Positions 3,329 to 29,863 of a stretch of DNA of 64,000 bases are shown here, piece after piece; positions within the stretch are counted from its first letter, which is position 1, and the number at the start of each line of letters is the position of its first letter. The stretch comes from Escherichia coli (GTDB lineage Bacteria; Pseudomonadota; Gammaproteobacteria; Enterobacterales; Enterobacteriaceae). The translations under genes and the position numbers were made by a program. A model generated the notes under the pieces. The model saw nothing but the letters and a program-made list of their open reading frames with translations, had not been told where the DNA came from and did not search any database. The stretch lies in NCBI RefSeq assembly GCF_003991155.1, contig NZ_CP031293.1, one strand, 5' to 3'.

Positions 3329-3777
3329 AATTATAATAAATATTATTGTTGATCGTTATATTATTATTCTTGCGTTATACTTTGAGAAAAGACGCGTTCA
3401 TCTTCGTCAAAGATATTATTAAATGCTGGTTTTGAAAAAAGTTCATCGGGTAATATACAGTCACGAAATAAGTATCTGCTAATGTTTTGTGATTTCTTTT
3501 TCAGAACGTCGAACGGGATTTTCTTATTTAAGATATCAGAATCTTATGATTCGGGTGAAATTCTAACTAAATCAACATGTCACTAAAATCATCATAGCCA
3601 TTAGCTATTTCGGCTAAAATAGAGATTACATGTCTTCGGTCCATCTCACTTAAGGAGTGTAGTTCCGTTGTAAGTTTTTCCATAGCTTGCATTGCTAAGT
3701 TTCGAACAAGGAATTTTCTGCTGGTAATCTCTAAAAAGATGGCATGGTTTATAATGATTTTTGTTACCTTTTGATTA

Positions 3778-8361: not shown

Positions 8362-8584
8362 AACTCAACGGCATCTTTGAAGCCTGCCTTTTTGCAGGCT
8401 TCCTCGCTCGCTCCGGTCGCGTGCTGATATACGCTTCCGGGGTTTTGCCGTGTCGTTAGCACAATGCGATGCAATTGATTTAGTGTATATCTAATAATTG
8501 TAAACAAGCACTGTTTTCCCCGGGAAGGTTCTGATGCGTCCGTGTTAAACTAAGAGAATCTATCTCTTTTGTACCTTCAGGACG

Positions 8585-10249: not shown

Positions 10250-11590
10250 GTGACTACATTAACGCTTGTTTTAACAGCAGTAGGGTCTGTTTTACTGCTG
10301 CTGTTTTTAGTCATGAAGGCGCGTATGCACGCTTTCCTGGCTTTGATGGTGGTGTCCATGGGGGCTGGCCTTTTTTCCGGTATGCCGCTCGATAAAATCG
10401 CAGCGACGATGGAAAAAGGGATGGGAGGCACCCTCGGCTTTCTGGCGGTGGTTGTCGCCCTGGGAGCCATGTTTGGCAAGATCTTACATGAAACCGGCGC
10501 AGTCGATCAGATTGCCGTCAAAATGCTCAAATCCTTCGGTCACAGCCGCGCGCATTATGCCATCGGCCTTGCGGGGCTGGTCTGTGCGCTACCGCTGTTC
10601 TTTGAAGTGGCGATTGTTCTGCTGATTAGCGTTGCTTTCTCAATGGCGCGCCACACCGGTACGAACCTGGTGAAGCTGGTAATCCCATTATTCGCAGGCG
10701 TGGCGGCCGCGGCTGCGTTCCTGGTGCCTGGACCAGCGCCAATGCTGCTGGCATCGCAGATGAACGCCGACTTTGGCTGGATGATCCTGATTGGCCTGTG
10801 TGCGGCAATTCCGGGAATGATTATTGCCGGGCCGCTGTGGGGTAATTTCATCAGCCGCTACGTGGAGCTGCATATTCCTGACGACATCAGCGAACCACAT
10901 CTCGGTGAAGGCAAAATGCCGTCCTTCGGATTCAGCCTGTCGCTGATCCTGTTGCCACTGGTGCTGGTGGGGCTGAAAACCATTGCCGCGCGTTTTGTGC
11001 CAGAAGGCTCTACCGCTTACGAATGGTTCGAGTTTATCGGCCATCCGTTTACCGCGATTCTGGTTGCTTGTCTGGTAGCAATTTATGGCCTGGCAATGCG
11101 TCAGGGTATGCCAAAAGACAAAGTGATGGAGATTTGTGGTCACGCGCTGCAACCGGCGGGGATCATTCTGCTGGTGATTGGTGCAGGCGGCGTGTTCAAA
11201 CAGGTGCTGGTTGACTCTGGTGTCGGTCCGGCACTGGGCGAAGCGTTAACCGGCATGGGCCTGCCGATTGCCATCACCTGCTTCGTGCTGGCAGCTGCAG
11301 TGCGCATCATTCAGGGTTCTGCCACTGTTGCCTGTTTAACGGCGGTGGGACTGGTAATGCCGGTCATTGAACAACTGAACTACTCCGGTGCGCAAATGGC
11401 GGCGCTGTCGATTTGTATCGCCGGTGGTTCGATTGTTGTCAGCCACGTTAACGACGCGGGTTTCTGGTTGTTCGGTAAATTTACCGGCGCGACCGAAGCC
11501 GAAACGCTTAAAACCTGGACCATGATGGAAACCATCCTCGGCACTGTTGGTGCCATCGTTGGGATGATTGCGTTCCAGCTGTTGAGTTAA
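10250..11590 (+). CDS. gntU: low-affinity gluconate:H+ symporter GntU (GTG start)
   Basis: 446-aa polytopic membrane protein of the GntP family; paralogous to gntT in this window. Confidence 0.9.
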   Translation: MTTLTLVLTAVGSVLLLLFLVMKARMHAFLALMVVSMGAGLFSGMPLDKIAATMEKGMGGTLGFLAVVVALGAMFGKILHETGAVDQIAVKMLKSFGHSRAHYAIGLAGLVCALPLFFEVAIVLLISVAFSMARHTGTNLVKLVIPLFAGVAAAAAFLVPGPAPMLLASQMNADFGWMILIGLCAAIPGMIIAGPLWGNFISRYVELHIPDDISEPHLGEGKMPSFGFSLSLILLPLVLVGLKTIAARFVPEGSTAYEWFEFIGHPFTAILVACLVAIYGLAMRQGMPKDKVMEICGHALQPAGIILLVIGAGGVFKQVLVDSGVGPALGEALTGMGLPIAITCFVLAAAVRIIQGSATVACLTAVGLVMPVIEQLNYSGAQMAALSICIAGGSIVVSHVNDAGFWLFGKFTGATEAETLKTWTMMETILGTVGAIVGMIAFQLLS

Positions 11591-11602
11591 TTACTGCGAC
11601 AA

Positions 11603-11628
11603 ATTACTGCGAGCTTGCTCGCAGTAAT
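11603..11628 (+). terminator. gntU terminator hairpin
   Basis: Perfect inverted repeat attactgcgagc / gctcgcagtaat followed by a T-rich tract. Confidence 0.7.
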
Positions 11629-11729
11629 TCATTTCTCTTATCTCCTCTCTTCATCTTTTTGATCTCTCTCGCAAATTTACCTGCTAATAATCCGTTCTAA
11701 TCACTGCCTAAAGATCGCAGGAGATAAAG

Positions 11730-13826
11730 ATGGAAAAGCACGGAGCTGAATTGCTTTTACAGCGGATGTTAGGAAATACCACCGCTACTTTCAGGGAAGG
11801 GCAATGGGAAGCCATAGATGCAGTGGTTAATCAGCGGCGAAAACTGCTGGTTGTACAGCGCACCGGCTGGGGGAAAAGTGCCGTGTACTTCATCGCCAGT
11901 AAAATCTTCCGCGATCGCGGCGCTGGCCCGACAATTATCATCTCTCCTTTGCTTGCCCTGATGCGTAACCAGGTTGCCGCCGCTGAACGGTTAGGTATTA
12001 CGGCTGAAACGTTGAATTCTACAAACAGGGAAGAATGGCAGCGCATTAGCGATAAGTTGCTGCAAGGTGAGGTCGATTGCTTGCTGGTTTCCCCGGAACG
12101 TTTGGCAAACCAGGACTTTATCGAAACGGTTTTATATCCTATAGCCGATCGTATTGGCTTGCTTGTGGTCGACGAGGCGCACTGCATCTCTGATTGGGGC
12201 CACGATTTTCGCCCGGATTACCGACGTATATTAGATATTTTGCGCCAACTGCCTGCGAATACCCCTGTTCTGGGTACAACCGCGACAGCGAATAACCGTG
12301 TTGTTGAGGATATCCGTCAGCAATTGGGTGACATTGTGATTCAGCGTGGAACGCTGGCTCGCGAAAGTTTGGCGCTTGATGCCTTAGTCTTAGGAGAACA
12401 GTCATCCCGTCTGGCATGGTTAGCAACGGTTATCCCTCAGTTTTCCAAATCGGGAATTGTTTATACCCTGACGACTCGCGATGCTGAACTTGTCGCCGAG
12501 TGGTTAAGGAAAAATGGTATCAGTGCATTTGCTTACTACAGCGGCGTGACTTGTGAAGGCGCGGAAGATTCTAATACTGCCAGGGAATATCTGGAGCAGG
12601 CACTGCTGGCAAATAAAATCAAAGTGCTGGTCGCGACGACGGCATTAGGTATGGGGTTTGATAAACCTGATTTAGGTTTCGTCATTCATTATCAGATGCC
12701 GGGGTCTATTGTCGGTTACTACCAACAGGTGGGGCGTGCCGGGCGTGCTATAGATTCCGCAGTTGGCATATTGCTTTGTGGTGGTGAAGACCGCGCTATT
12801 CATCAATTCTTCCGTGAAAGCGCCTTTCCTGCGGAGGCGCAAATTCATGAAATACTCAACGTACTTAGCGAGAATGACGGTCTTACCCTACGAGGCATTG
12901 AACAACGGACGAATCTTCGTTATGGGCAAATAGAAAAAGCACTGAAATTATTGGTAGCGGAAAATCCATCGCCTGTGGTGTATACCGAGAAATTATGGCG
13001 CAGAACTATCGTCAGTTTTTCTCCTGATCATGAACGAATTAACCATTTGATGAATCAGAGAAAAAGTGAGCTGGCAGACGTTGAAAGCTATATCACGACC
13101 AAGGAGTGCAAAATGCAATTTCTGCGCCGTGCACTCGATGAGCCAAGTGCCGAACGTTGTGGTAAATGTAGCAGTTGTCTTCAACATCCGTTATTGTCGC
13201 CCGACATTGATAGCGGCTTACTCCATGCGGCAAATTTATTTATTAAACACGCTGACCTGCCGTTAAATCTCAATAAACAGGTGGCAGCTGGGGCTTTTAC
13301 GCAATACGGATTTAAAGGGAACTTGCCTGCGGGTTTACAAGGATCTACGGGGCGAATCCTTTCTCGTTGGGGAGATTCCGGGTGGGGAAAGCAGGTAGCA
13401 CAGGAGAAAAAAACGGGGCGCTTAAGTGATGAGCTGGTAGAAGCATGTGCGGAAATGGTTTGCCAACGCTGGAATCCGCATCCTGAACCAACCTGGGTAT
13501 GCTGCGTTCCTTCATTAAGGCACCTCGACCTGGTTCCTGATTTTGCCCGGCGACTGGCGGCGAAACTTGGCTTACCTTTTATTGATGCCATTGAAAAAGT
13601 CGTGGACAATCCACCGCAGAAAATGCAGCAAAACCGTTTTCACCAGTGTCAAAATCTCGACGGGGCGTTTGTGATTACCCCTCCTTTGATGCCAGGTCCG
13701 GCGTTGCTGGTTGACGATATCGTGGATTCTGCATGGACGCTGACAGTTCTGACAGCACTGTTACGCAAGGCAGGTTGCCCGACGGTTTATCCTCTTGCCC
13801 TTGCTTCTACCTCGGTAAAAAATTGA
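11730..13826 (+). CDS. RecQ-like superfamily-2 DNA helicase fused to a C-terminal ComF-type phosphoribosyltransferase-like domain (PsyrT/ShosT-like candidate toxin or defence effector)
   Basis: 698 aa; helicase motifs Walker A (RTGWGKSAVY), DEAH in the RecQ-style context VVDEAHCISDWGHDFRPDY, TATA and QQVGRAGR; a Zn-binding Cys cluster (ERCGKCSSC); the last ~150 aa carry a PRPP-binding-like motif ALLVDDIVDSAWTLTVL resembling gntX/ComF MVIVDDVVTTGST. AGGAGA ribosome-binding site before the ATG. Not part of the K-12 gntU-yhgN junction as I recall it. Confidence 0.8.
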   Translation: MEKHGAELLLQRMLGNTTATFREGQWEAIDAVVNQRRKLLVVQRTGWGKSAVYFIASKIFRDRGAGPTIIISPLLALMRNQVAAAERLGITAETLNSTNREEWQRISDKLLQGEVDCLLVSPERLANQDFIETVLYPIADRIGLLVVDEAHCISDWGHDFRPDYRRILDILRQLPANTPVLGTTATANNRVVEDIRQQLGDIVIQRGTLARESLALDALVLGEQSSRLAWLATVIPQFSKSGIVYTLTTRDAELVAEWLRKNGISAFAYYSGVTCEGAEDSNTAREYLEQALLANKIKVLVATTALGMGFDKPDLGFVIHYQMPGSIVGYYQQVGRAGRAIDSAVGILLCGGEDRAIHQFFRESAFPAEAQIHEILNVLSENDGLTLRGIEQRTNLRYGQIEKALKLLVAENPSPVVYTEKLWRRTIVSFSPDHERINHLMNQRKSELADVESYITTKECKMQFLRRALDEPSAERCGKCSSCLQHPLLSPDIDSGLLHAANLFIKHADLPLNLNKQVAAGAFTQYGFKGNLPAGLQGSTGRILSRWGDSGWGKQVAQEKKTGRLSDELVEACAEMVCQRWNPHPEPTWVCCVPSLRHLDLVPDFARRLAAKLGLPFIDAIEKVVDNPPQKMQQNRFHQCQNLDGAFVITPPLMPGPALLVDDIVDSAWTLTVLTALLRKAGCPTVYPLALASTSVKN

Positions 13827-15028
13827 TGAATCTTTCAGCCAATGCACAAGCGACCCTCCTGCTAACCAGCGATTTTTCTCGCGCGGCGGCGAGTGAGTAT
13901 AAACCTCTTAGTAATAGTGAATGGGGGAAGTTTGCATTATGGCTGAAGCACCAACGTATCAGTCCCGCCGATCTTCTGGTGCCGCAACCGCAAGAGAAAC
14001 TTACAGGCTGGAGCGATCCGCGTATTTCTCAGGAGCGTATTCTTGGCTTGCTGGCGCGTGGCCATAGTCTGGCGTTGGCGGTAGATAAGTGGCAACGCGC
14101 CGGTTTATGGATCTTAACCCGCGGAGATGCCGATTATCCCGTTCGCTTGAAAAACCGATTGCGAACGGATGCACCTCCCGTTTTATTTGGCTGCGGGAAT
14201 AAAGCATTACTGCAAGCGGAAGGTATGGCGATTGTTGGCTCGCGAGATGCTCCGACTGCCGATTTGCGCTATACCCAACAACTGGCAGCGAAACTGGCCC
14301 AACAGGGGATTTGCGTTATCTCTGGTGGTGCGCGAGGTATTGATGAATGTGCAATGGCGTCGGCACTGGAGGCCGGGGGAACTGCCGTTGGCGTATTAGC
14401 TGATAGCTTGTTAAAAACGAGTACGTTAGTGAAATGGCGTGAAGGGCTTATAGCAGGCAACCTGGTGTTGATTTCGCCGTTTTACCCAGAGGTACGTTTC
14501 ACCGTCGGCAATGCGATGGCGCGAAATAAATATATTTATTGCCTTGCTGAAAGCGCAATGGTTGTACGTGCGGGAATGACCGGTGGAACGATAACCGGAG
14601 CGATGGAGGCGTTAAAACATCAGTGGCTGCCTGTGCAGGTTAAACCAAATCAGGATGTGCAATCAGCCAATTCACGATTAGTAGAAAATGGGGCGTCATG
14701 GAGTGCTGAACAGGCTGAGAATGTGACGATCAGACTGCCAGACGTTCCTGGGCTGATGTATGACAGAGCACTCCGTAACGCTCAACCAGAATTGTTTTCG
14801 CTGCACGAAGATGACGCAAATTACGCAGTGATGCCCTCGCATACCCCTGTCGATTTTTATCAACTTTTTGTGGCGGAACTGGCGATCCTTGCAAAGGAAT
14901 CGATAAGTATTGAAAGGCTGGCGTCTTGTACTGGTTTAACCATCGAACAAATTAGTGTGTGGCTGAACCGCGCAGAAGAAGAGGGAAGGGTTATCCGATT
15001 GGGCGAAGGTCATTATCAGTTCAGGTAA
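13826..15028 (+). CDS. DprA/Smf-like Rossmann-fold DNA-processing protein (PsyrA/ShosA-like candidate antitoxin or partner)
   Basis: 400 aa from the ATG at 13826, which overlaps the upstream TGA (TGATG, translational coupling); DprA signature (MAIVGSRDAPTADLRY ... VISGGARGIDECAMASALEAGG) and a C-terminal winged-helix-like tail; the track's longer ORF from 13733 is an in-frame extension into the upstream gene. Confidence 0.8.
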   Translation: MNLSANAQATLLLTSDFSRAAASEYKPLSNSEWGKFALWLKHQRISPADLLVPQPQEKLTGWSDPRISQERILGLLARGHSLALAVDKWQRAGLWILTRGDADYPVRLKNRLRTDAPPVLFGCGNKALLQAEGMAIVGSRDAPTADLRYTQQLAAKLAQQGICVISGGARGIDECAMASALEAGGTAVGVLADSLLKTSTLVKWREGLIAGNLVLISPFYPEVRFTVGNAMARNKYIYCLAESAMVVRAGMTGGTITGAMEALKHQWLPVQVKPNQDVQSANSRLVENGASWSAEQAENVTIRLPDVPGLMYDRALRNAQPELFSLHEDDANYAVMPSHTPVDFYQLFVAELAILAKESISIERLASCTGLTIEQISVWLNRAEEEGRVIRLGEGHYQFR

Positions 15029-15030
15029 TA

Positions 15031-15068
15031 AAACAGGTGCCGCCTCTGGTTGTGTGCAGCACCTGTTT
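15031..15068. terminator. hairpin between the island and the yhgN 3' end
   Basis: Inverted repeat aaacaggtgc ... gcacctgttt with an 18-nt loop, between the DprA-like stop and the yhgN stop. Confidence 0.45.
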
Positions 15069-26648: not shown

Positions 26649-26731
26649 GCCTTTATTTAGGAAAAGTGTCCAGAGGGGGCGAGGGTTATCGGGGAGTATA
26701 ATTTCGCCATTCAGCAAGAATGGAAAGAATA

Positions 26732-28237
26732 ATGCAAAACGGAAAATGGATTTTGACCTCGCTGGTAATGACTTTTTTTGGCATCCCCATACTGGCGCAA
26801 TTTTTGGCAGCGGTTGTTGCCATGCTGGGGGCCGGGCTTGCCGCTATTCTTGAGGTTTGCAATTTACTCTTTACGCCAACAATTTATCTTCTACTCAACG
26901 TCTTTATGCTGACGCTGGGGGCGATAATCATATTTTTCTCTGGTCGCGTGTGGACTGGTGATAGCGCACCAGAAAAAAGAGAAATAGCCGCCTGGCGACA
27001 ATGCTTTTTTCTCTTACCCGCGCTATTAACCCTGATTGGCTGGATAATCGCGCTACATCTGGCAGATTATCAACTTCGCCAGATGGGAGCCGGTTGGTTG
27101 GCAAACCTTATGCTTCCCTGGTTGGGCGTTTTTACAGTCTCATTCGTCGGTGGTGAGTACTGGTGGATAGTCATTATTCCCGTTGGCGCGCATATCAGTT
27201 TTTCACTGGGATACGGCTGGCCGACCAGACACCCTTTAACCGGCACCTCCGGTCTACGTTGCCGTAATTTACTTCTGTTCATTCTTCTCTTACTGGGTAT
27301 TGTCGCTGGTTATCAGGCTTATTTATATAAACAGCTTAATCCCGGCGTCGGTGTGCGTGAAAATATTGATACCTGGGCCTGGCGACCCGATAAACTTAAT
27401 AATCAACTGACGCCACTGCGTGGTAAACCACAAATTCAATTTACGCAAAACTGGCCGCGACTCGATGGCGCTACGGCGGCGTACCCCATTTATGCCTCTG
27501 CATTTTATGCATTAAGTGTAATACCAGAGGATTTTCACGTTTGGGATTATCTGGATAACTCTCGTACGCCAGAAGCATATAACAAAATCGTTAACGGTGA
27601 TGCCGATATTATTTTCGTGGCGCAACCTTCCGATGGGCAAAAAAAACGCGCTGAGAAATCGGGCGTCACTTTGCTGTACACGCCATTTGCCCGTGAAGCG
27701 TTTGTTTTCATCGTCAATGCGGATAATCCGGTTAATTCCCTGACTGAACAACAAGTGCGTGACATTTTTAGTGGCGAAATTACCAACTGGCGCACGGTTG
27801 GCGGTAAGGATCAGGAGATCCAGACCTGGCAACGCCCGGAAGACTCTGGCAGCCAGACAGTGATGCAATCACAGGTCATGAAAAATGTCCGCATGATCTC
27901 GCCGCAGGAAACCGAAGTGGCAAGCATGATGGAGGGAATGATTAAAGTCGTTGCCGAATACCGTAATACAAACAACGCAATAGGCTACACCTTCCGCTAT
28001 TACGCAACACAAATGAATGCCGATAAAAATATAAAACTGCTAGCGATTAACGGTATTGCACCGACTGCGGAAAATATTCGTAACGGCAAATATCCGTATA
28101 TCATCGATGCCTTTATGGTAACGCGGGAAAATACTACGTCAGAAACACAAAAACTGGTCGAATGGTTTTTAACGCCGCAGGGACAGAGTCTGGTGGAAGA
28201 TGTGGGCTATGTGCCGCTGTATCCAACAATGAAATAA
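26732..28237 (+). CDS. membrane-anchored PstS-like substrate-binding protein (N-terminal polytopic membrane domain fused to a C-terminal phosphate/oxyanion-binding-protein-like domain)
   Basis: About 200 aa of hydrophobic helices, then a binding-protein-like domain with an R-x-x-D-S-G-S-Q-T motif (QRPEDSGSQTVM) reminiscent of the PstS phosphate-binding loop; start taken at the ATG at 26732 (MQNGKW, GGAAAG upstream), though 26720 is also possible. K-12 has only a pseudogene remnant (yzgL) at this position, from memory. Confidence 0.65.
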   Translation: MQNGKWILTSLVMTFFGIPILAQFLAAVVAMLGAGLAAILEVCNLLFTPTIYLLLNVFMLTLGAIIIFFSGRVWTGDSAPEKREIAAWRQCFFLLPALLTLIGWIIALHLADYQLRQMGAGWLANLMLPWLGVFTVSFVGGEYWWIVIIPVGAHISFSLGYGWPTRHPLTGTSGLRCRNLLLFILLLLGIVAGYQAYLYKQLNPGVGVRENIDTWAWRPDKLNNQLTPLRGKPQIQFTQNWPRLDGATAAYPIYASAFYALSVIPEDFHVWDYLDNSRTPEAYNKIVNGDADIIFVAQPSDGQKKRAEKSGVTLLYTPFAREAFVFIVNADNPVNSLTEQQVRDIFSGEITNWRTVGGKDQEIQTWQRPEDSGSQTVMQSQVMKNVRMISPQETEVASMMEGMIKVVAEYRNTNNAIGYTFRYYATQMNADKNIKLLAINGIAPTAENIRNGKYPYIIDAFMVTRENTTSETQKLVEWFLTPQGQSLVEDVGYVPLYPTMK

Positions 28238-28262
28238 CGCTCGAGAGAAAGGAATCAGCGCA

Positions 28263-29255
28263 ATGAATAAATTCACCGGTGTTTTACTATTAGGTACGGC
28301 GCTACTGGCGGGATGTGTCGACCGGGAAGGGTACTATAACAGCGTCAGGGAAGAAGACAGCCATGGACTGACGTCTCTGCGGGGGCAACCTGAATTACGT
28401 TACAACGATGATTGGTCAAGATGGCCGAGAGTGTACGGCGCTACAGCCTTATACCCGCTGTATGCCTCCGCGTATTATGAATTAGTACCCGAGCCAAAAG
28501 ATAAGGATCGAACCTCGCTGGCCTGGCAGGCGTATGGTTTGCAACAAACCCGAACAGCTGAAGCCTACGATAGTCTGATTAAGGGTACCGCGACGGTTAT
28601 TTTTGTTGCACAACCGTCGGAAGGACAGAAAAAACGTGCAGAAGAAGCAGGTGTTAAACTCAAATATACCGCTTTCGCCCGCGAAGCCTTTGTCTTTATC
28701 GTTGATATCAAAAACCCGGTTAATTCACTTAGCGAACAGCAGGTCAAAGACATTTTTAGCGGTAAAGTGAGTCGCTGGAATAAAGTGGGCGGCGGTGACG
28801 AAAGTATAAAAGTCTGGCAGCGGCCAGAAGATTCTGGAAGCCAAACGGTTATGAAGGGACTGGTTATGCAAGATACTCCAATGCTGCCAGCCAAAAAATC
28901 CACTGTTATCGATCTTATGGGCGGTTTAATTACCGAAGTCGCCGACTACCAAAATACACCATCTTCTATTGGATACACCTTCTACTATTACGTCACACGT
29001 ATGAATGACAATATGCTCAAAATGCGCAAACAGATCAAACTGCTGGCTATAAATGGCGTTGCACCTACAGAGGAAAATATCCGTAACGGCACTTATCCGT
29101 ACATAATTCATGCTTATATGGTGACGCACGAAAACCCTACGCTGGAAACACAGAAATTCGTCGACTGGTTTTTAAGCCCGCAGGGACAGCAATTGGTAGA
29201 GGATGTGGGCTATGTGCCGATTTATGACGCATCATCCGAATCATCAGGACAATAA
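28263..29255 (+). CDS. PstS-like substrate-binding lipoprotein, paralog of the C-terminal domain of the upstream gene
   Basis: 330 aa; lipoprotein signal with lipobox (MNKFTGVLLLGTALLAGC); shares long near-identical blocks with the upstream protein (VIFVAQPSEGQKKRAEEAGV, QRPEDSGSQTVM, KLLAINGVAPTEENIRNGTYPYII, VEDVGYVPIY); AAGGAA ribosome-binding site. Confidence 0.7.
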   Translation: MNKFTGVLLLGTALLAGCVDREGYYNSVREEDSHGLTSLRGQPELRYNDDWSRWPRVYGATALYPLYASAYYELVPEPKDKDRTSLAWQAYGLQQTRTAEAYDSLIKGTATVIFVAQPSEGQKKRAEEAGVKLKYTAFAREAFVFIVDIKNPVNSLSEQQVKDIFSGKVSRWNKVGGGDESIKVWQRPEDSGSQTVMKGLVMQDTPMLPAKKSTVIDLMGGLITEVADYQNTPSSIGYTFYYYVTRMNDNMLKMRKQIKLLAINGVAPTEENIRNGTYPYIIHAYMVTHENPTLETQKFVDWFLSPQGQQLVEDVGYVPIYDASSESSGQ

Positions 29256-29257
29256 AG

Positions 29258-29863
29258 ATGAATAAAATCAGACTTTATATTCCTCCGTTAATTCTTGGTT
29301 TTGTTATTGTGCCGTTGTTGGTGTGGCCGACGGTGGTTGCGCTGGCTGCTTGTGTTATCACGCTGAGTTTTATGGGAGAAATACTGTTCTCTATCCCGCT
29401 CATGTTCAGGAGTATTTCACTTCTGGAATTCCAACTTGGGTTATTGGCTGAATATGCACTTTTTTTCTGTGCCATGTGTTGCGTTGGTTGGCAATTTTCT
29501 TGCAGAACTCAATCTGAACTGAAAAGCAGACTCCATTGTTGGTTGGTATTTGCACCAGTTTATTTCTGGTTGCTCCTGTGGAATATCATTTTCTATGTCG
29601 CGCCAGCGCAAATTGCTTTGCTGGAAAATATGCGCAATTTCTTTCTGACCATTGTCTGGTTACCCCTGAATTTTTTTCAATTTGGGTCTCAGCCGTGGAC
29701 TGACTTTATCGGTCCGATAAGCGCCCAGCTTGGTTTTGCATTGGGATATTATTGCCAGTGGCGTAGCAAAAATAGAAGTCAGAGGAAGAAGTGGGGCGAG
29801 TGGGTAACGTGCTTAAGTTTGGCGATTTTAGCTCAGGGGCCGTTATTCAATTATTTACAATGA
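29258..29863 (+). CDS. hypothetical polytopic membrane protein
   Basis: 201-aa ORF with about five hydrophobic segments, 2 bp after the lipoprotein gene (probable operon); no recognisable family from sequence alone. Confidence 0.5.
   Translation: MNKIRLYIPPLILGFVIVPLLVWPTVVALAACVITLSFMGEILFSIPLMFRSISLLEFQLGLLAEYALFFCAMCCVGWQFSCRTQSELKSRLHCWLVFAPVYFWLLLWNIIFYVAPAQIALLENMRNFFLTIVWLPLNFFQFGSQPWTDFIGPISAQLGFALGYYCQWRSKNRSQRKKWGEWVTCLSLAILAQGPLFNYLQ

Follow-up and report, generated by a model that had tools for sequence, protein, structure and literature searches.

A pyrimidine-rich tract between gntU and the rqlHI (psyrTA) operon of Escherichia coli: a candidate terminator-to-promoter spacer conserved in composition rather than in sequence

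Between the gluconate transporter gene gntU and a downstream helicase gene, the 64-kb stretch of Escherichia coli DNA analysed here (the window) contains a pyrimidine-rich tract that is real, extreme, strictly linked to the helicase cassette and syntenic across genera. The tract is an ordinary kind of feature, and the one thing unusual about it is that its composition, not its sequence, has been preserved. Our best explanation, to which we give an even chance of being correct, is that it constitutes a native terminator-to-promoter spacer leading from gntU to rqlHI (psyrTA) and combines three overlapping roles. Its first ~10 nt (CAUUUCUCUU in the RNA) would form the U-rich tail of a conserved hairpin at the gntU 3' end, and hairpin and tail together would act as a weak intrinsic terminator and as a structure protecting the 3' end. 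Its last ~13 nt would supply the upstream half-site and the spacer of a CRP/FNR-type site centred at 11665.5, which would be positioned relative to the hexamer TCTAAT as in class II activator-dependent promoters. In that case rqlHI transcripts would begin near 11707 and would lack the tract. The G-free middle would keep gntU read-through RNA unstructured, with more C than G, and we propose that Rho could thereby complete termination before rqlH. The promoter position, the binding factor, the termination efficiency and the involvement of Rho are all inferred. The features concerned are, in order:

10250-11590, plus strand: gntU, gluconate transporter (RefSeq annotation of the 100% identical strain 2016C-3878)
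11588-11590, plus strand: gntU stop codon TAA, left breakpoint of homology with empty-site strains
11589-11612, plus strand: E. coli-specific tandem copy of AATTACTGCGA (11589-11599 and 11602-11612; repeat search)
11602-11629, plus strand: stem-loop with 12-bp stem and CTTG loop (terminator-like call, fold, covariation)
11628-11670, plus strand: pyrimidine-rich tract, top-scoring segment of the window
11655-11676, core 11658-11673, no strand assigned: CRP/FNR-family-type palindrome CTT-TTTGA-TCTCTC-TCGCA-AAT (13-sequence alignment)
11676-11689, plus strand: hypervariable spacer from the palindrome to the -10-like block (differences between the window and Nissle 1917)
11696-11701, plus strand: -10-like hexamer TCTAAT (AAT columns invariant or nearly so across genera)
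11719-11724, plus strand: Shine-Dalgarno sequence AGGAGA (read from the sequence)
11730-13826, plus strand: rqlH = psyrT, RecQ-like helicase with C-terminal phosphoribosyltransferase domain, toxin (PADLOC, Pfam)
13823-15028, plus strand: rqlI = psyrA, DprA/SLOG-like antitoxin, from its probable start (PADLOC, Pfam DNA_processg_A)
15031-15068, no strand assigned: distal terminator-like hairpin between rqlI and the convergent yhgN (inverted repeat and fold)

An unusually CT-rich run upstream of the helicase gene had been noted in the initial annotation, and such a run is indeed present, tctcttatctcctctcttcatctttttgatctctctcgc at 11634-11672 containing 34 pyrimidines among 39 residues. The interval given for it, 11634-11729, was too long, since the tract proper extends only to about 11672 and the remainder is proximal leader of normal composition (pyrimidine fraction 0.48). 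The AGGAGA ribosome-binding site described at its end was found 5 nt before the ATG at 11730. Scoring of the whole window revealed 11628-11670 (43 nt, 88% pyrimidines, score 28) as the top pyrimidine segment, the runners-up being a pyrimidine run with a score of 19 and a purine run with a score of 21; it is the strongest run of either kind in the 64 kb. The densest 39-nt interval, with 35 pyrimidines, begins at 11632. The 78 nt from 11627 contain 23 C and 4 G (C/G 5.75), which, among all such intervals of both strands, ranks them in the top 0.2% by C minus G and in the top 0.03% by low G. Three parts can be discerned. Some 10 nt at the 5' end (CATTTCTCTT) make up the T-rich tail of the hairpin, some 13 nt at the 3' end are shared with the left half-site and the spacer of the CRP/FNR-like site, and the stretch between them is a linker without G. 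The region is free of ribosomes, being located between the gntU stop codon and the ribosome-binding site of rqlH. H-DNA was rejected, as the best mirror arms are 6 nt long with a 7-nt spacer, the longest uninterrupted pyrimidine run in the tract is 12 nt, and the sequence is not conserved. Small open reading frames were rejected as well. They comprise MNYCEQARSNLSQ, ending in a stop and preceded by a good Shine-Dalgarno sequence, and a 16-codon frame on the minus strand, and a TTG-initiated 13-codon frame on the plus strand; none of them is kept across genera, and in one E. coli variant the ATG is lost.

Matches to the PsyrT and PsyrA profiles identify the helicase "island" as the two-gene RqlHI/PsyrTA toxin-antitoxin (phage-defence) operon already known from E. 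coli. The PADLOC PsyrT profile covers residues 3-697 of the 698 residues of RqlH with 1061.7 bits, and Pfam detects DEAD and Helicase_C domains together with weak matches to Pribosyltran (605-684) and RecQ_Zn_bind. PsyrA is matched with 669 bits, the matches of both proteins being full-length. For strain F11, an ExPEC isolate, the searchable text of Russell and Mulvey 2015 (PMC4670107) reports co-transcription of the two genes by RT-PCR, products of 698 aa (RqlH) and 400 aa (RqlI), and rqlHI mRNA levels unaffected by whether growth is aerobic or microaerobic. The literature reports, for F11 and for other PsyrTA systems, that the partner neutralises the toxicity of the helicase, and it reports phage defence. 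According to the text of Russell and Mulvey, rqlHI is a two-gene operon separate from its neighbours, the gntU-rqlH junction lying outside the tests performed. In the RefSeq call, rqlI is a longer ORF beginning at 13733. Since the PsyrA profile begins at residue 32 of this ORF, gene calls for orthologous rqlH and rqlI overlap by 4 nt, and RqlI of F11 has 400 aa, the ATG at 13823, overlapping the rqlH stop codon (ATGA, 13823-13826), is probably the rqlI start. Searchable literature yielded no promoter or transcript-start data on rqlHI/PsyrTA and no transcript 3' end or binding data for the locus.

Among 5426 complete genomes, the rqlHI leader is present in 1650, in one copy each, always on the chromosome and always between gntU and yhgN. 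An empty allele with an unrelated 56-bp spacer was found in 3774, and the two figures sum to all 5424 genomes with a match. K-12-type genomes match up to base 11590 only, and homology with empty-site strains picks up again at the yhgN stop codon, at about 15074. Searches of plasmids and phages did not detect the leader. In one IncF plasmid, psyrTA lacks the leader and is fused into an hsdMS operon. The tract is located near the left edge of the DNA missing from K-12-type strains, and it had been suggested that it could be a recombination scar at the insertion boundary; the remnant of an attachment site would be a variant of that idea. Homology breaks exactly at the two stop codons, however, that of gntU lying 38 nt before the tract; searches revealed neither flanking direct repeats nor a nearby tRNA gene, and rqlH and rqlI are all that the inserted segment encodes, with no integrase annotated. 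The K-12 spacer scores 18-19 against the cassette compared with 19.8 +/- 2.2 for shuffled sequences, and its derivation as a deletion remnant was rejected because it resembles no part of the cassette. Divergence of the cassette between E. coli phylogroups amounts to 1-2%, as in its flanks, the leader was never found on plasmids or phages, and the arrangement of hairpin, tract and site is also kept in other genera, where the helicase is only 68-74% identical. Strains lacking the island do not contain the tract, the leader being confined to the 1650 cassette-bearing genomes. As far as sequence can show, an origin as a scar is already refuted, and we regard it as hardly credible. The label "island" is misleading for a two-gene operon that diverged like its flanks and is syntenic across genera; rqlHI has long occupied the gap between gntU and yhgN, where it is polymorphic for presence or absence, and is not a recent insertion.

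Which parts of the leader are conserved was read from an alignment of 13 orthologous sequences representing 11 lineages, including E. coli, Citrobacter and Silvania. In orthologues with 68-74% identity (Citrobacter, Silvania and others) the gntU-rqlH junction is kept with a gap of 139-144 bp, and in lineage L099 it is kept despite a different downstream flank. Four conserved elements were recognized, the hairpin, the CRP/FNR-type palindrome, the -10-like hexamer and the ribosome-binding site. Outside the coding sequences and the ATG, invariant columns occur in the hairpin core, in GA...TC of the palindrome and at one A of the hexamer, and nowhere else. Identity between genera is 0.74 for the hairpin, 0.70 for the site and 0.59 for the hexamer, and 0.43 and 0.36 for the tract and the middle spacer, respectively. 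The value of 0.43 has to be compared with 0.35 expected from composition in the 11 lineages, so that the sequence of the tract is not kept; its composition is, with pooled fractions of 0.79 for pyrimidines, 0.06 for G, 0.50 for T and 0.29 for C. The alignment thus displays covariation of the hairpin, conservation of the palindrome and of AAT in the hexamer, and conservation of composition without sequence in the middle of the tract. As all 13 sequences are orthologous, the conserved spacing partly reflects common descent. Eighty more distant psyrT loci (46-65% identity) were also inspected. The pyrimidine tract is absent upstream of psyrT in the 33 best of these 80 loci, the hairpin palindrome occurs in 0 of 80, and CRP/FNR-like sites were seen in 6 of 40 loci with a defined start compared with a background of 9%, which is no enrichment. 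By this survey, the module is specific to the gntU-linked enterobacterial lineage. A metagenome scan with GCTGCGAG-N4-CTCGCAGC returned 120 environmental contigs, all unrelated and none with gntU or rqlH.

The terminator that the initial annotation had assigned to gntU corresponds to the hairpin with a 12-bp stem and a 4-nt loop directly after the stop codon. Its inner 7 bp (CTGCGAG/CTCGCAG) are invariant and its outer 5 bp covary. In the alignment 97.9% of the cells are paired, compensatory changes are seen in five of the 12 pairs, and none of 500 shuffles reached the covariation score. The folding energy is -16.6 kcal/mol (z -5.5). RNAalifold found this hairpin as the sole conserved structure, with no conserved pairing downstream of it. 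Using a lenient scan, hairpin and T-rich tail were called terminator-like in five of six sequences (two E. coli alleles and four other lineages); the Silvania sequence received no such call. The tail contains six U in ten residues, with interruptions, and is a poor U-tract in some genera. The hairpin stands at the 3' end of gntU and is predicted to be a weak intrinsic terminator. In E. coli the first copy of AATTACTGCGA overlaps the gntU stop codon and provides an alternative 5' arm for the hairpin; in other genera this upstream copy is degenerate. An Rfam scan of 11300-12100 (E <= 10) gave only chance matches, with at most 19.8 bits against gathering thresholds of 44-85 and E values of 0.7-2.6.

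That the run could be part of the promoter or leader of the helicase gene is supported in outline: the tract lies within a conserved control region, and its 3' end overlaps the CRP/FNR-type site, which is followed by the hexamer and the ribosome-binding site. A sigma-70 consensus promoter, on the other hand, is not detectable. The 18-bp palindrome, with TTTGA-N6-TCGCA as its core, has its centre between 11665 and 11666, and GA...TC of its TGA-N6-TC core is invariant in the 13 sequences. In the window it matches the CRP core (TGTGA-N6-TCACA) at 8 of 10 positions and that of FNR (TTGAT-N4-ATCAA) at 7 of 10, a match of at least 8/10 being expected by chance at about 8e-4 per position. CRP matches of 8-9/10 were found in nine of the 11 lineages, and the other two match FNR at 9/10. 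Since matches of at least 8/10 to CRP or FNR occur in ~9% of random 105-nt segments, the match alone carries little weight, and the argument depends on conservation. The left half always lacks the G of TGTGA, and the right half in E. coli is TCGCA. The CRP site of deoP2 presumably has the same half-sites (TTTGA...TCGCA), which we do not count as evidence. A GntR (LacI-family) operator was rejected by eye, with 6 of 10 consensus positions. For one lineage (L221), the site TTGATTTATATCAC is identical save one spacer base to the validated FNR site of ompW, TTGATTTAAATCAC, described along with the CRP and FNR consensus sequences (PMC4886647). The class II position is -41.5, and a working CRP site of ompW is centred at -42.5 (PMC4886647).

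The distance from the palindrome centre to the beginning of the hexamer is 29.5 bp, or 30.5 bp in E. coli and L099. A class II promoter with its site centred at -41.5 and a standard hexamer from -12 to -7 would have 29.5 bp between the centre and the beginning of the hexamer; the observed spacing of 29.5-30.5 bp fits class II geometry. The hexamer is contained in a block (11690-11706) without differences between the two E. coli alleles. In the spacer at 11676-11689, 8 of 14 nucleotides differ between the alleles; the differences cluster, yet they spare exactly the palindrome and the hexamer block. TCTAAT might be a -10 element, with a predicted start near 11707-11709; the assignment is a weak one because the hexamer (nYWAAT) has no A at -11, a residue present in nearly all sigma-70 promoters. 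Scans for sigma-70 promoters in the window, the Nissle allele and four other lineages gave nothing at a conserved position, and a self-sufficient sigma-70 promoter is absent in five of these six sequences, which fits dependence on an activator. The GGAG/GGA core of the ribosome-binding site is kept in most orthologues. The oxygen-insensitive rqlHI mRNA of F11 reported in the searchable text of PMC4670107 argues against control by FNR in E. coli.

Several other explanations of the tract have to be weighed against the terminator-to-promoter spacer. It could have been selected mainly as a Rho utilisation (rut) zone, with the promoter elements being incidental, an explanation that overlaps with the third of the proposed roles. 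Ribosomes would leave at the gntU stop codon, Rho would load on ~78 nt of G-poor, C-containing, unstructured RNA, read-through would be terminated around the rqlH start, and exonucleases would trim the RNA back to the hairpin. Published criteria for rut sites are ~78 nt with C>G and C every 11-13 nt, and sites with C/G >= 3 are rare (PMC6407284). The C/G ratio of the 78 nt from 11627, their extremely low G content and their C residues every 11-13 nt speak for such a zone, as do the lack of conserved structure downstream of the hairpin, the poor U-tract of the hairpin tail in several genera and the conservation of composition rather than sequence, which would be expected for a signal read by composition in single-stranded RNA. 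The RhoTermPredict criteria as re-implemented here, however, are passed in only 6 of 11 lineages, the B2 allele of E. coli reaches a C/G of 1.91 only, and T-richness and G-poverty are conserved more than C-richness is. We consider it unlikely that loading of Rho is the main selected function of the tract.

Two further possibilities appear improbable to us, and to a similar degree. According to one of them, rqlHI has no separate promoter and depends for its expression on read-through from the gntKU transcript, which gluconate induces; the hairpin would be an attenuator and stabiliser, and the CU-rich tract an unstructured intercistronic leader serving as a landing pad for ribosomes or S1, or as an anti-Shine-Dalgarno sequence. 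Read-through agrees with the adjacency of gntU and rqlH, which is kept in 11 of 11 lineages despite differences in the downstream flank, and with the failure to find a consensus promoter. In addition, AUCUCCU (11640-11646) is perfectly complementary over 7 nt to AGGAGAU (11719-11725), and folding predicts that the Shine-Dalgarno sequence is largely base-paired in read-through RNA (0.79) and largely accessible in a transcript beginning at -23 (0.33). Shuffled upstream sequence gives a degree of pairing that the native one does not exceed, though (0.74 +/- 0.12), the lineages are inconsistent (0.32-0.95), and RNAalifold finds no conserved pairing between tract and Shine-Dalgarno sequence; anti-Shine-Dalgarno pairing by the tract was rejected on these grounds. 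What is actually conserved is a palindrome of DNA type and a hexamer, and the description of rqlHI as a separate operon also stands against read-through, as far as the searchable text of a study that left the gntU junction outside its tests can be applied. The other possibility is a bias without a function of its own, a relic of the T-rich region distal to the terminator and of the pyrimidine-rich half of the binding site, which would persist by shared ancestry or mutational bias and be most extreme in E. coli by chance. It is consistent with the absence of invariant columns from the tract, with a ts/tv ratio of 0.82, transitions not being favoured over transversions, with the weaker bias in several genera (pyrimidine fraction 0.66-0.71) and with the lack of a consistent signal in specific tests for RNA or DNA structure. 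Against it, the identity of the tract is close to that of composition-matched random sequence, yet the bias towards pyrimidines and away from G is kept across the 11 lineages, a combination that is difficult to account for unless there is constraint or mutation is strongly biased by strand.

In extraintestinal E. coli the RqlHI/PsyrTA toxin-antitoxin pair is relevant to virulence, and it is also listed among anti-phage systems; the searchable literature contains no description of its promoter or regulation. The comparison presented here provides a testable map of the control region, consisting of hairpin, pyrimidine spacer, CRP/FNR-type site, -10-like block and ribosome-binding site. This is a modest advance, and it corrects the picture of a recently inserted island. 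Extending the interpretation as a terminator-to-promoter spacer, a conserved CRP/FNR class II promoter might set toxin and antitoxin levels according to carbon or oxygen status in Escherichia, Citrobacter, Silvania and related Enterobacteriaceae, with the hairpin and a Rho-loading pyrimidine spacer, defined by composition only, insulating the operon from gluconate-induced gntKU. We consider this proposal rather unlikely. If true, it would define a regulatory module for a defence system and an operon wired directly to central physiology, and it might relate to the low-oxygen phenotype of rqlI mutants.

Compared with RqlHI of F11, the genes and the locus are the same, a RecQ-like helicase with a phosphoribosyltransferase domain being encoded upstream of, and overlapping, the DprA-like RqlI; the searchable text of PMC4670107 does not mention the tract, hairpin, palindrome, gntU junction, leader or promoter. 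The hairpin resembles intrinsic terminators in being a stable stem-loop right after a stop codon with a T-rich stretch behind it. It differs from them in its interrupted tail, which has no run of 6-8 U, and in its stem with only 5 G-C pairs, and it is unrelated in sequence to the bidirectional gntU/yhgN terminator of the empty site in K-12 (CCCGGTAG...CTACCGGG with TTCTTTT). Like rut sites as defined for RhoTermPredict (PMC6407284), the tract region has more C than G, with a C/G of 5.75 over 78 nt, has regularly spaced C, is free of ribosomes and of structure, and follows a hairpin that could protect the trimmed 3' end; in contrast to them it is T-rich rather than C-rich, and 5 of the 11 orthologous lineages do not pass the criteria. 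With respect to class II CRP/FNR promoters, the left half without the G of TGTGA, the right half TCGCA and the hexamer without the A at -11 are deviations, and the missing effect of oxygen on rqlHI mRNA in F11, as given in the searchable text of PMC4670107, is another in the case of FNR. The likeness to these promoters consists in the conserved TGA-N6-TCA core, the hexamer 29.5-30.5 bp from its centre and the absence of a -35 element.

Composition analyses confirmed the CT-rich run that the initial annotation had noted upstream of the helicase gene. The quoted run (11634-11672) contains 34 pyrimidines in 39 residues. When pyrimidine and purine runs were scored with +1/-2 across the 64-kb window, the maximal pyrimidine segment was 11628-11670 (43 nt, 88% pyrimidine, score 28), the runner-up segments reaching 19 for pyrimidines and 21 for purines. 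The peak pyrimidine count per 39 nt in the 64 kb, 35, starts at 11632. With 23 C and four G, the 78 nt from 11627 are among the uppermost 0.2% of all windows, both strands counted, by C minus G, and among the uppermost 0.03% by G depletion. Judged by these scores and counts, the run lies far beyond chance. Of the interval originally assigned to it, 11634-11729, the tract part could be retained, but the proximal part, 11673-11729, is compositionally normal. The AGGAGA ribosome-binding site is present at 11719-11724, and the ATG follows 5 nt further on at 11730. H-DNA was considered for the tract and rejected; the longest unbroken pyrimidine run is 12 nt and mirror arms are just 6 nt long. An Rfam scan of the region gave no family match, and none of the small ORFs found on either strand of the leader is conserved.

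Features of the gntU-rqlH region:
11602-11629, plus strand: gntU 3' hairpin, perfect 12-bp stem and 4-nt loop, beginning 12 nt past the gntU stop codon
11658-11673, 3' end of the tract: palindrome TTTGA-TCTCTC-TCGCA, GA and TC invariant in 13 junctions
11696-11701, plus strand: -10-like hexamer TCTAAT, AAT conserved; elsewhere CTAAAT, CTTAAT, ATAAAT or TTTAAT
11730-13826, plus strand: rqlH (psyrT), 698 aa, full-length PADLOC PsyrT match, 1061.7 bits

The window derives from the E. coli chromosome and matches strain 2016C-3878 at 100% identity. Its genes run yhhW-gntR-gntK-gntU, then, after a gap, the two genes of the cassette, then yhgN (minus strand)-asd-glgBXCAP. RqlH contains DEAD and Helicase_C domains and, at its C terminus, a weak phosphoribosyltransferase match; the product of the second gene, RqlI, matches the PsyrA profile (669 bits) and also DprA. 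The two-gene cassette is the RqlHI operon of ExPEC strain F11 described by Russell and Mulvey, in which the PRTase domain of RqlH is genotoxic without RqlI and both genes are co-transcribed (PMC4670107). In the phage-defence literature RqlHI is PsyrTA, and a preprint reports strongly correlated PsyrTA expression profiles among E. coli strains with this genomic context. No mapping of the rqlHI promoter, transcript start or gntU junction was found in the literature searched.

Several observations concern the genes themselves. RefSeq annotates rqlI as a 431-aa ORF overlapping rqlH by 94 nt (13733-13826); the PsyrA profile matches from residue 32, and a start at ATG 13823, overlapping the rqlH stop as ATGA, is indicated by gene calls in orthologues and by the published size of 400 aa. 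The annotation of O157:H7 FRIK2069 (locus L007, 740-1339) gives rqlH a frameshift and an internal stop, and in Shigella sonnei the gene product is truncated to 593-657 aa (proteins P0002-P0013); therefore, the toxin gene decays in some lineages with the leader intact. Elsewhere in the neighbourhood, the yhhW-gntR spacer (8362-8584) is 223 bp long in the window and in K-12 and 92 bp in Nissle 1917, an insertion/deletion of about 130 bp, and the annotation places two genes for PstS-family phosphate-binding proteins and one hypothetical gene between glgP and glpD (about 26729-29863; locus L001, 35330-38464).

A recombination scar at the insertion boundary had been proposed as one possible origin of the tract, beside an island promoter or leader. 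The 139-bp leader is present in 1650 complete E. coli genomes, in one copy each and always chromosomal, and a 56-bp K-12-type spacer in 3774; the site has exactly two states, which together make up all 5424 genomes with a match. The suggested alignment with the empty site was performed. Homology between the two states ends exactly at the gntU stop codon and restarts exactly at the yhgN stop codon, and the 56-bp spacer, which carries its own hairpin, showed no similarity to the cassette (local alignment 18-19 versus 19.8 +/- 2.2 for shuffles). Neither direct repeats flanking the cassette nor a nearby tRNA gene were found, no integrase is annotated in the inserted segment, which contains rqlH and rqlI only, and searches of 72,556 plasmids and 50,697 phage records did not detect the leader. 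Divergence from the B2 strain Nissle 1917 is about 1-2% in the cassette, similar to that of the flanking core genes. The closest helicases outside E. coli (68-74% identity) are located directly after gntRKU with a gap of 140-144 bp, in Citrobacter freundii, Silvania hatchlandensis and several assembled relatives, and are usually followed by yhgN-asd (another flank in one case). From this common placement of diverged helicases it follows that the operon is an old resident of the gap with a presence/absence polymorphism. A scar is therefore extremely improbable and the term island is not appropriate; judging from synteny, the tract is part of the native upstream region of the operon, and very probably a regulatory spacer. 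As a separate observation, the E. coli IncFIA/FIC conjugative plasmid L225 (NZ_OX030731.1, 1-3579) carries a 71%-identical psyrT-psyrA pair 14 nt behind hsdM-hsdS, embedded in a type I restriction operon without a leader of its own.

To define conserved elements, 13 gntU-rqlH junctions from about 11 distinct lineages were aligned. Coding sequence and start codon aside, invariant columns are confined to the hairpin, the palindrome and the AAT of the hexamer; the 28 nt separating hairpin and palindrome contain none.

Between-genus identity in the gntU-rqlH gap:
Hairpin: 0.74
Tract: 0.43 (0.35 from composition alone)
Palindrome: 0.70
Next 20 nt after the palindrome: 0.36
Hexamer block: 0.59

Every lineage is pyrimidine-rich in the tract (0.66-0.89, pooled 0.79) and poor in G (0-4 in 27-29 nt, pooled 6%). 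The bias declines downstream, from 0.68 in the palindrome and 0.64 in the next 20 nt to 0.45 near the ribosome-binding site, where it is gone. Near-random identity combined with steady composition means that sense-strand composition is kept and sequence is not. Of the more distant psyrT loci in other contexts (46-65% identity), the 33 best were analysed for composition and lack such a tract upstream. A functionless compositional relic would fit the lack of invariant columns, the constant composition speaks against it, and we consider it improbable.

The palindrome matches the CRP core TGTGA-N6-TCACA at 8/10 positions in the window and at 8-9/10 in nine of 11 lineages, six of these with a perfect TCACA right half; the other two match the FNR consensus TTGAT-N4-ATCAA at 9/10. 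Except for one spacer base, the palindrome of one orthologue, TTGATTTATATCAC, equals the FNR site of ompW, which has been validated experimentally (PMC4886647). Most lineages have 29.5 bp between the palindrome centre and the first base of the hexamer, and E. coli and one further lineage have 30.5 bp, as expected for a site centred at -41.5 or -42.5, the documented class II positions of CRP and FNR (PMC4886647). By sequence match, CRP appears the more consistent candidate across lineages; in E. coli, the degenerate right half-site speaks against FNR, as does the reported absence of an oxygen effect on rqlHI mRNA in strain F11 (PMC4670107). As an independent check within the species, the two main E. 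coli alleles differ at 8/14 positions in 11676-11689 and at 10/22 in 11707-11728 and are identical over the palindrome and 11690-11706, which includes the hexamer. A class II promoter would be expected to leave this pattern of conserved site, free spacer, conserved -10 block and free 5' UTR. Assignment of the hexamer as a -10 element is weak, since no version of it has the -11 A. Differences between the window allele and the B2 (Nissle 1917) allele cluster in two bursts, leader 11676-11728 and rqlH 12070-12173 (104 nt with about 26 changes, mostly synonymous), the remaining cassette differing by 1-2%; the bursts look like patches imported by recombination or rapid divergence of regulatory sequence.

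Terminators and promoters were scanned in six sequences, the two E. coli alleles and four other lineages. No sigma-70 consensus promoter was detected at a conserved position, which fits either activator dependence or read-through. Pure read-through expression of rqlHI, with the tract as intercistronic leader, is quite unlikely beside the conserved palindrome. An anti-Shine-Dalgarno role was also considered: AUCUCCU (11640-11646) could pair with AGGAGAU (11719-11725) at all seven positions, and predicted SD pairing is 0.79 in read-through RNA versus 0.33 in a transcript from -23. This role was rejected; shuffled upstream sequences pair equally well (0.74 +/- 0.12), and pairing in other lineages varies from 0.32 to 0.95 with no conserved pairing detected.

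The tract starts within the hairpin tail. Among the inner seven pairs, CTGCGAG/CTCGCAG, the sole departures from invariance are single mismatches in two of 13 sequences (loci L098 and L223), and the outer five vary by compensatory substitutions, with double changes at five of 12 pairs. In the alignment 97.9% of hairpin cells are paired, falling to 23-58% in shifted registers; none of 500 shuffles matched the covariation score, and RNAalifold found no other structure in the whole gap. Hairpin and T-rich tail fit a lenient intrinsic-terminator pattern in five of the six scanned sequences, Silvania failing, and the tails are interrupted; at best, this is a weak intrinsic terminator. In E. coli only, AATTACTGCGA is tandemly duplicated at 11589-11612, the first copy overlapping the gntU stop codon, so that the 3' arm can form either an 11-bp stem with a 19-nt loop or the 12-bp stem; other genera have no such duplication or a degenerate one. 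In some genera the rqlI-yhgN terminator hairpin shares a TACTGCG...CGCAGTA core with the E. coli upstream hairpin (L098 6282-6317, L223 about 3545-3575, L224 about 3525-3550), and the K-12 empty-site hairpin (L002 4192-4247) and the L224 downstream hairpin have GCCCGGTA and GCTACC in common. These motifs may hint at kinship of the two site alleles, or be due to chance.

By re-implemented RhoTermPredict rut criteria (78 nt, C/G > 1, C every 11-13 nt; PMC6407284), the window allele passes with C/G 5.75, a value rare among K-12 predictions; only six of 11 lineages pass, and the B2 allele has C/G 1.91. Rho loading on the leader RNA of the window allele is therefore plausible, and not uniformly conserved. 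As the main function of the tract, which would partly overlap the reading we prefer, it is rather unlikely.

That preferred reading, to which we give an even chance as a composite, is a terminator-to-promoter spacer with a three-part role. The 5' end would be the U-rich tail of the conserved gntU hairpin, and the 3' end would provide the rqlHI promoter with the upstream half of a conserved CRP/FNR-type activator site; with a predicted start near 11707, the tract would be left out of rqlHI mRNA. The G-free middle would keep gntU read-through RNA unstructured and, in the window allele, suit Rho loading, so that the toxin-first operon may be insulated from gluconate-induced transcription. That this defence/toxin-antitoxin operon is directly controlled by CRP or FNR across Enterobacteriaceae and also insulated by Rho is doubtful.

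Relative to the literature searched, the control-region map and the conserved CRP/FNR-type candidate site appear to be new. The rqlHI genes are a known system, and the tract combines known kinds of features: a terminator tail, a promoter-upstream region and possibly a rut site.
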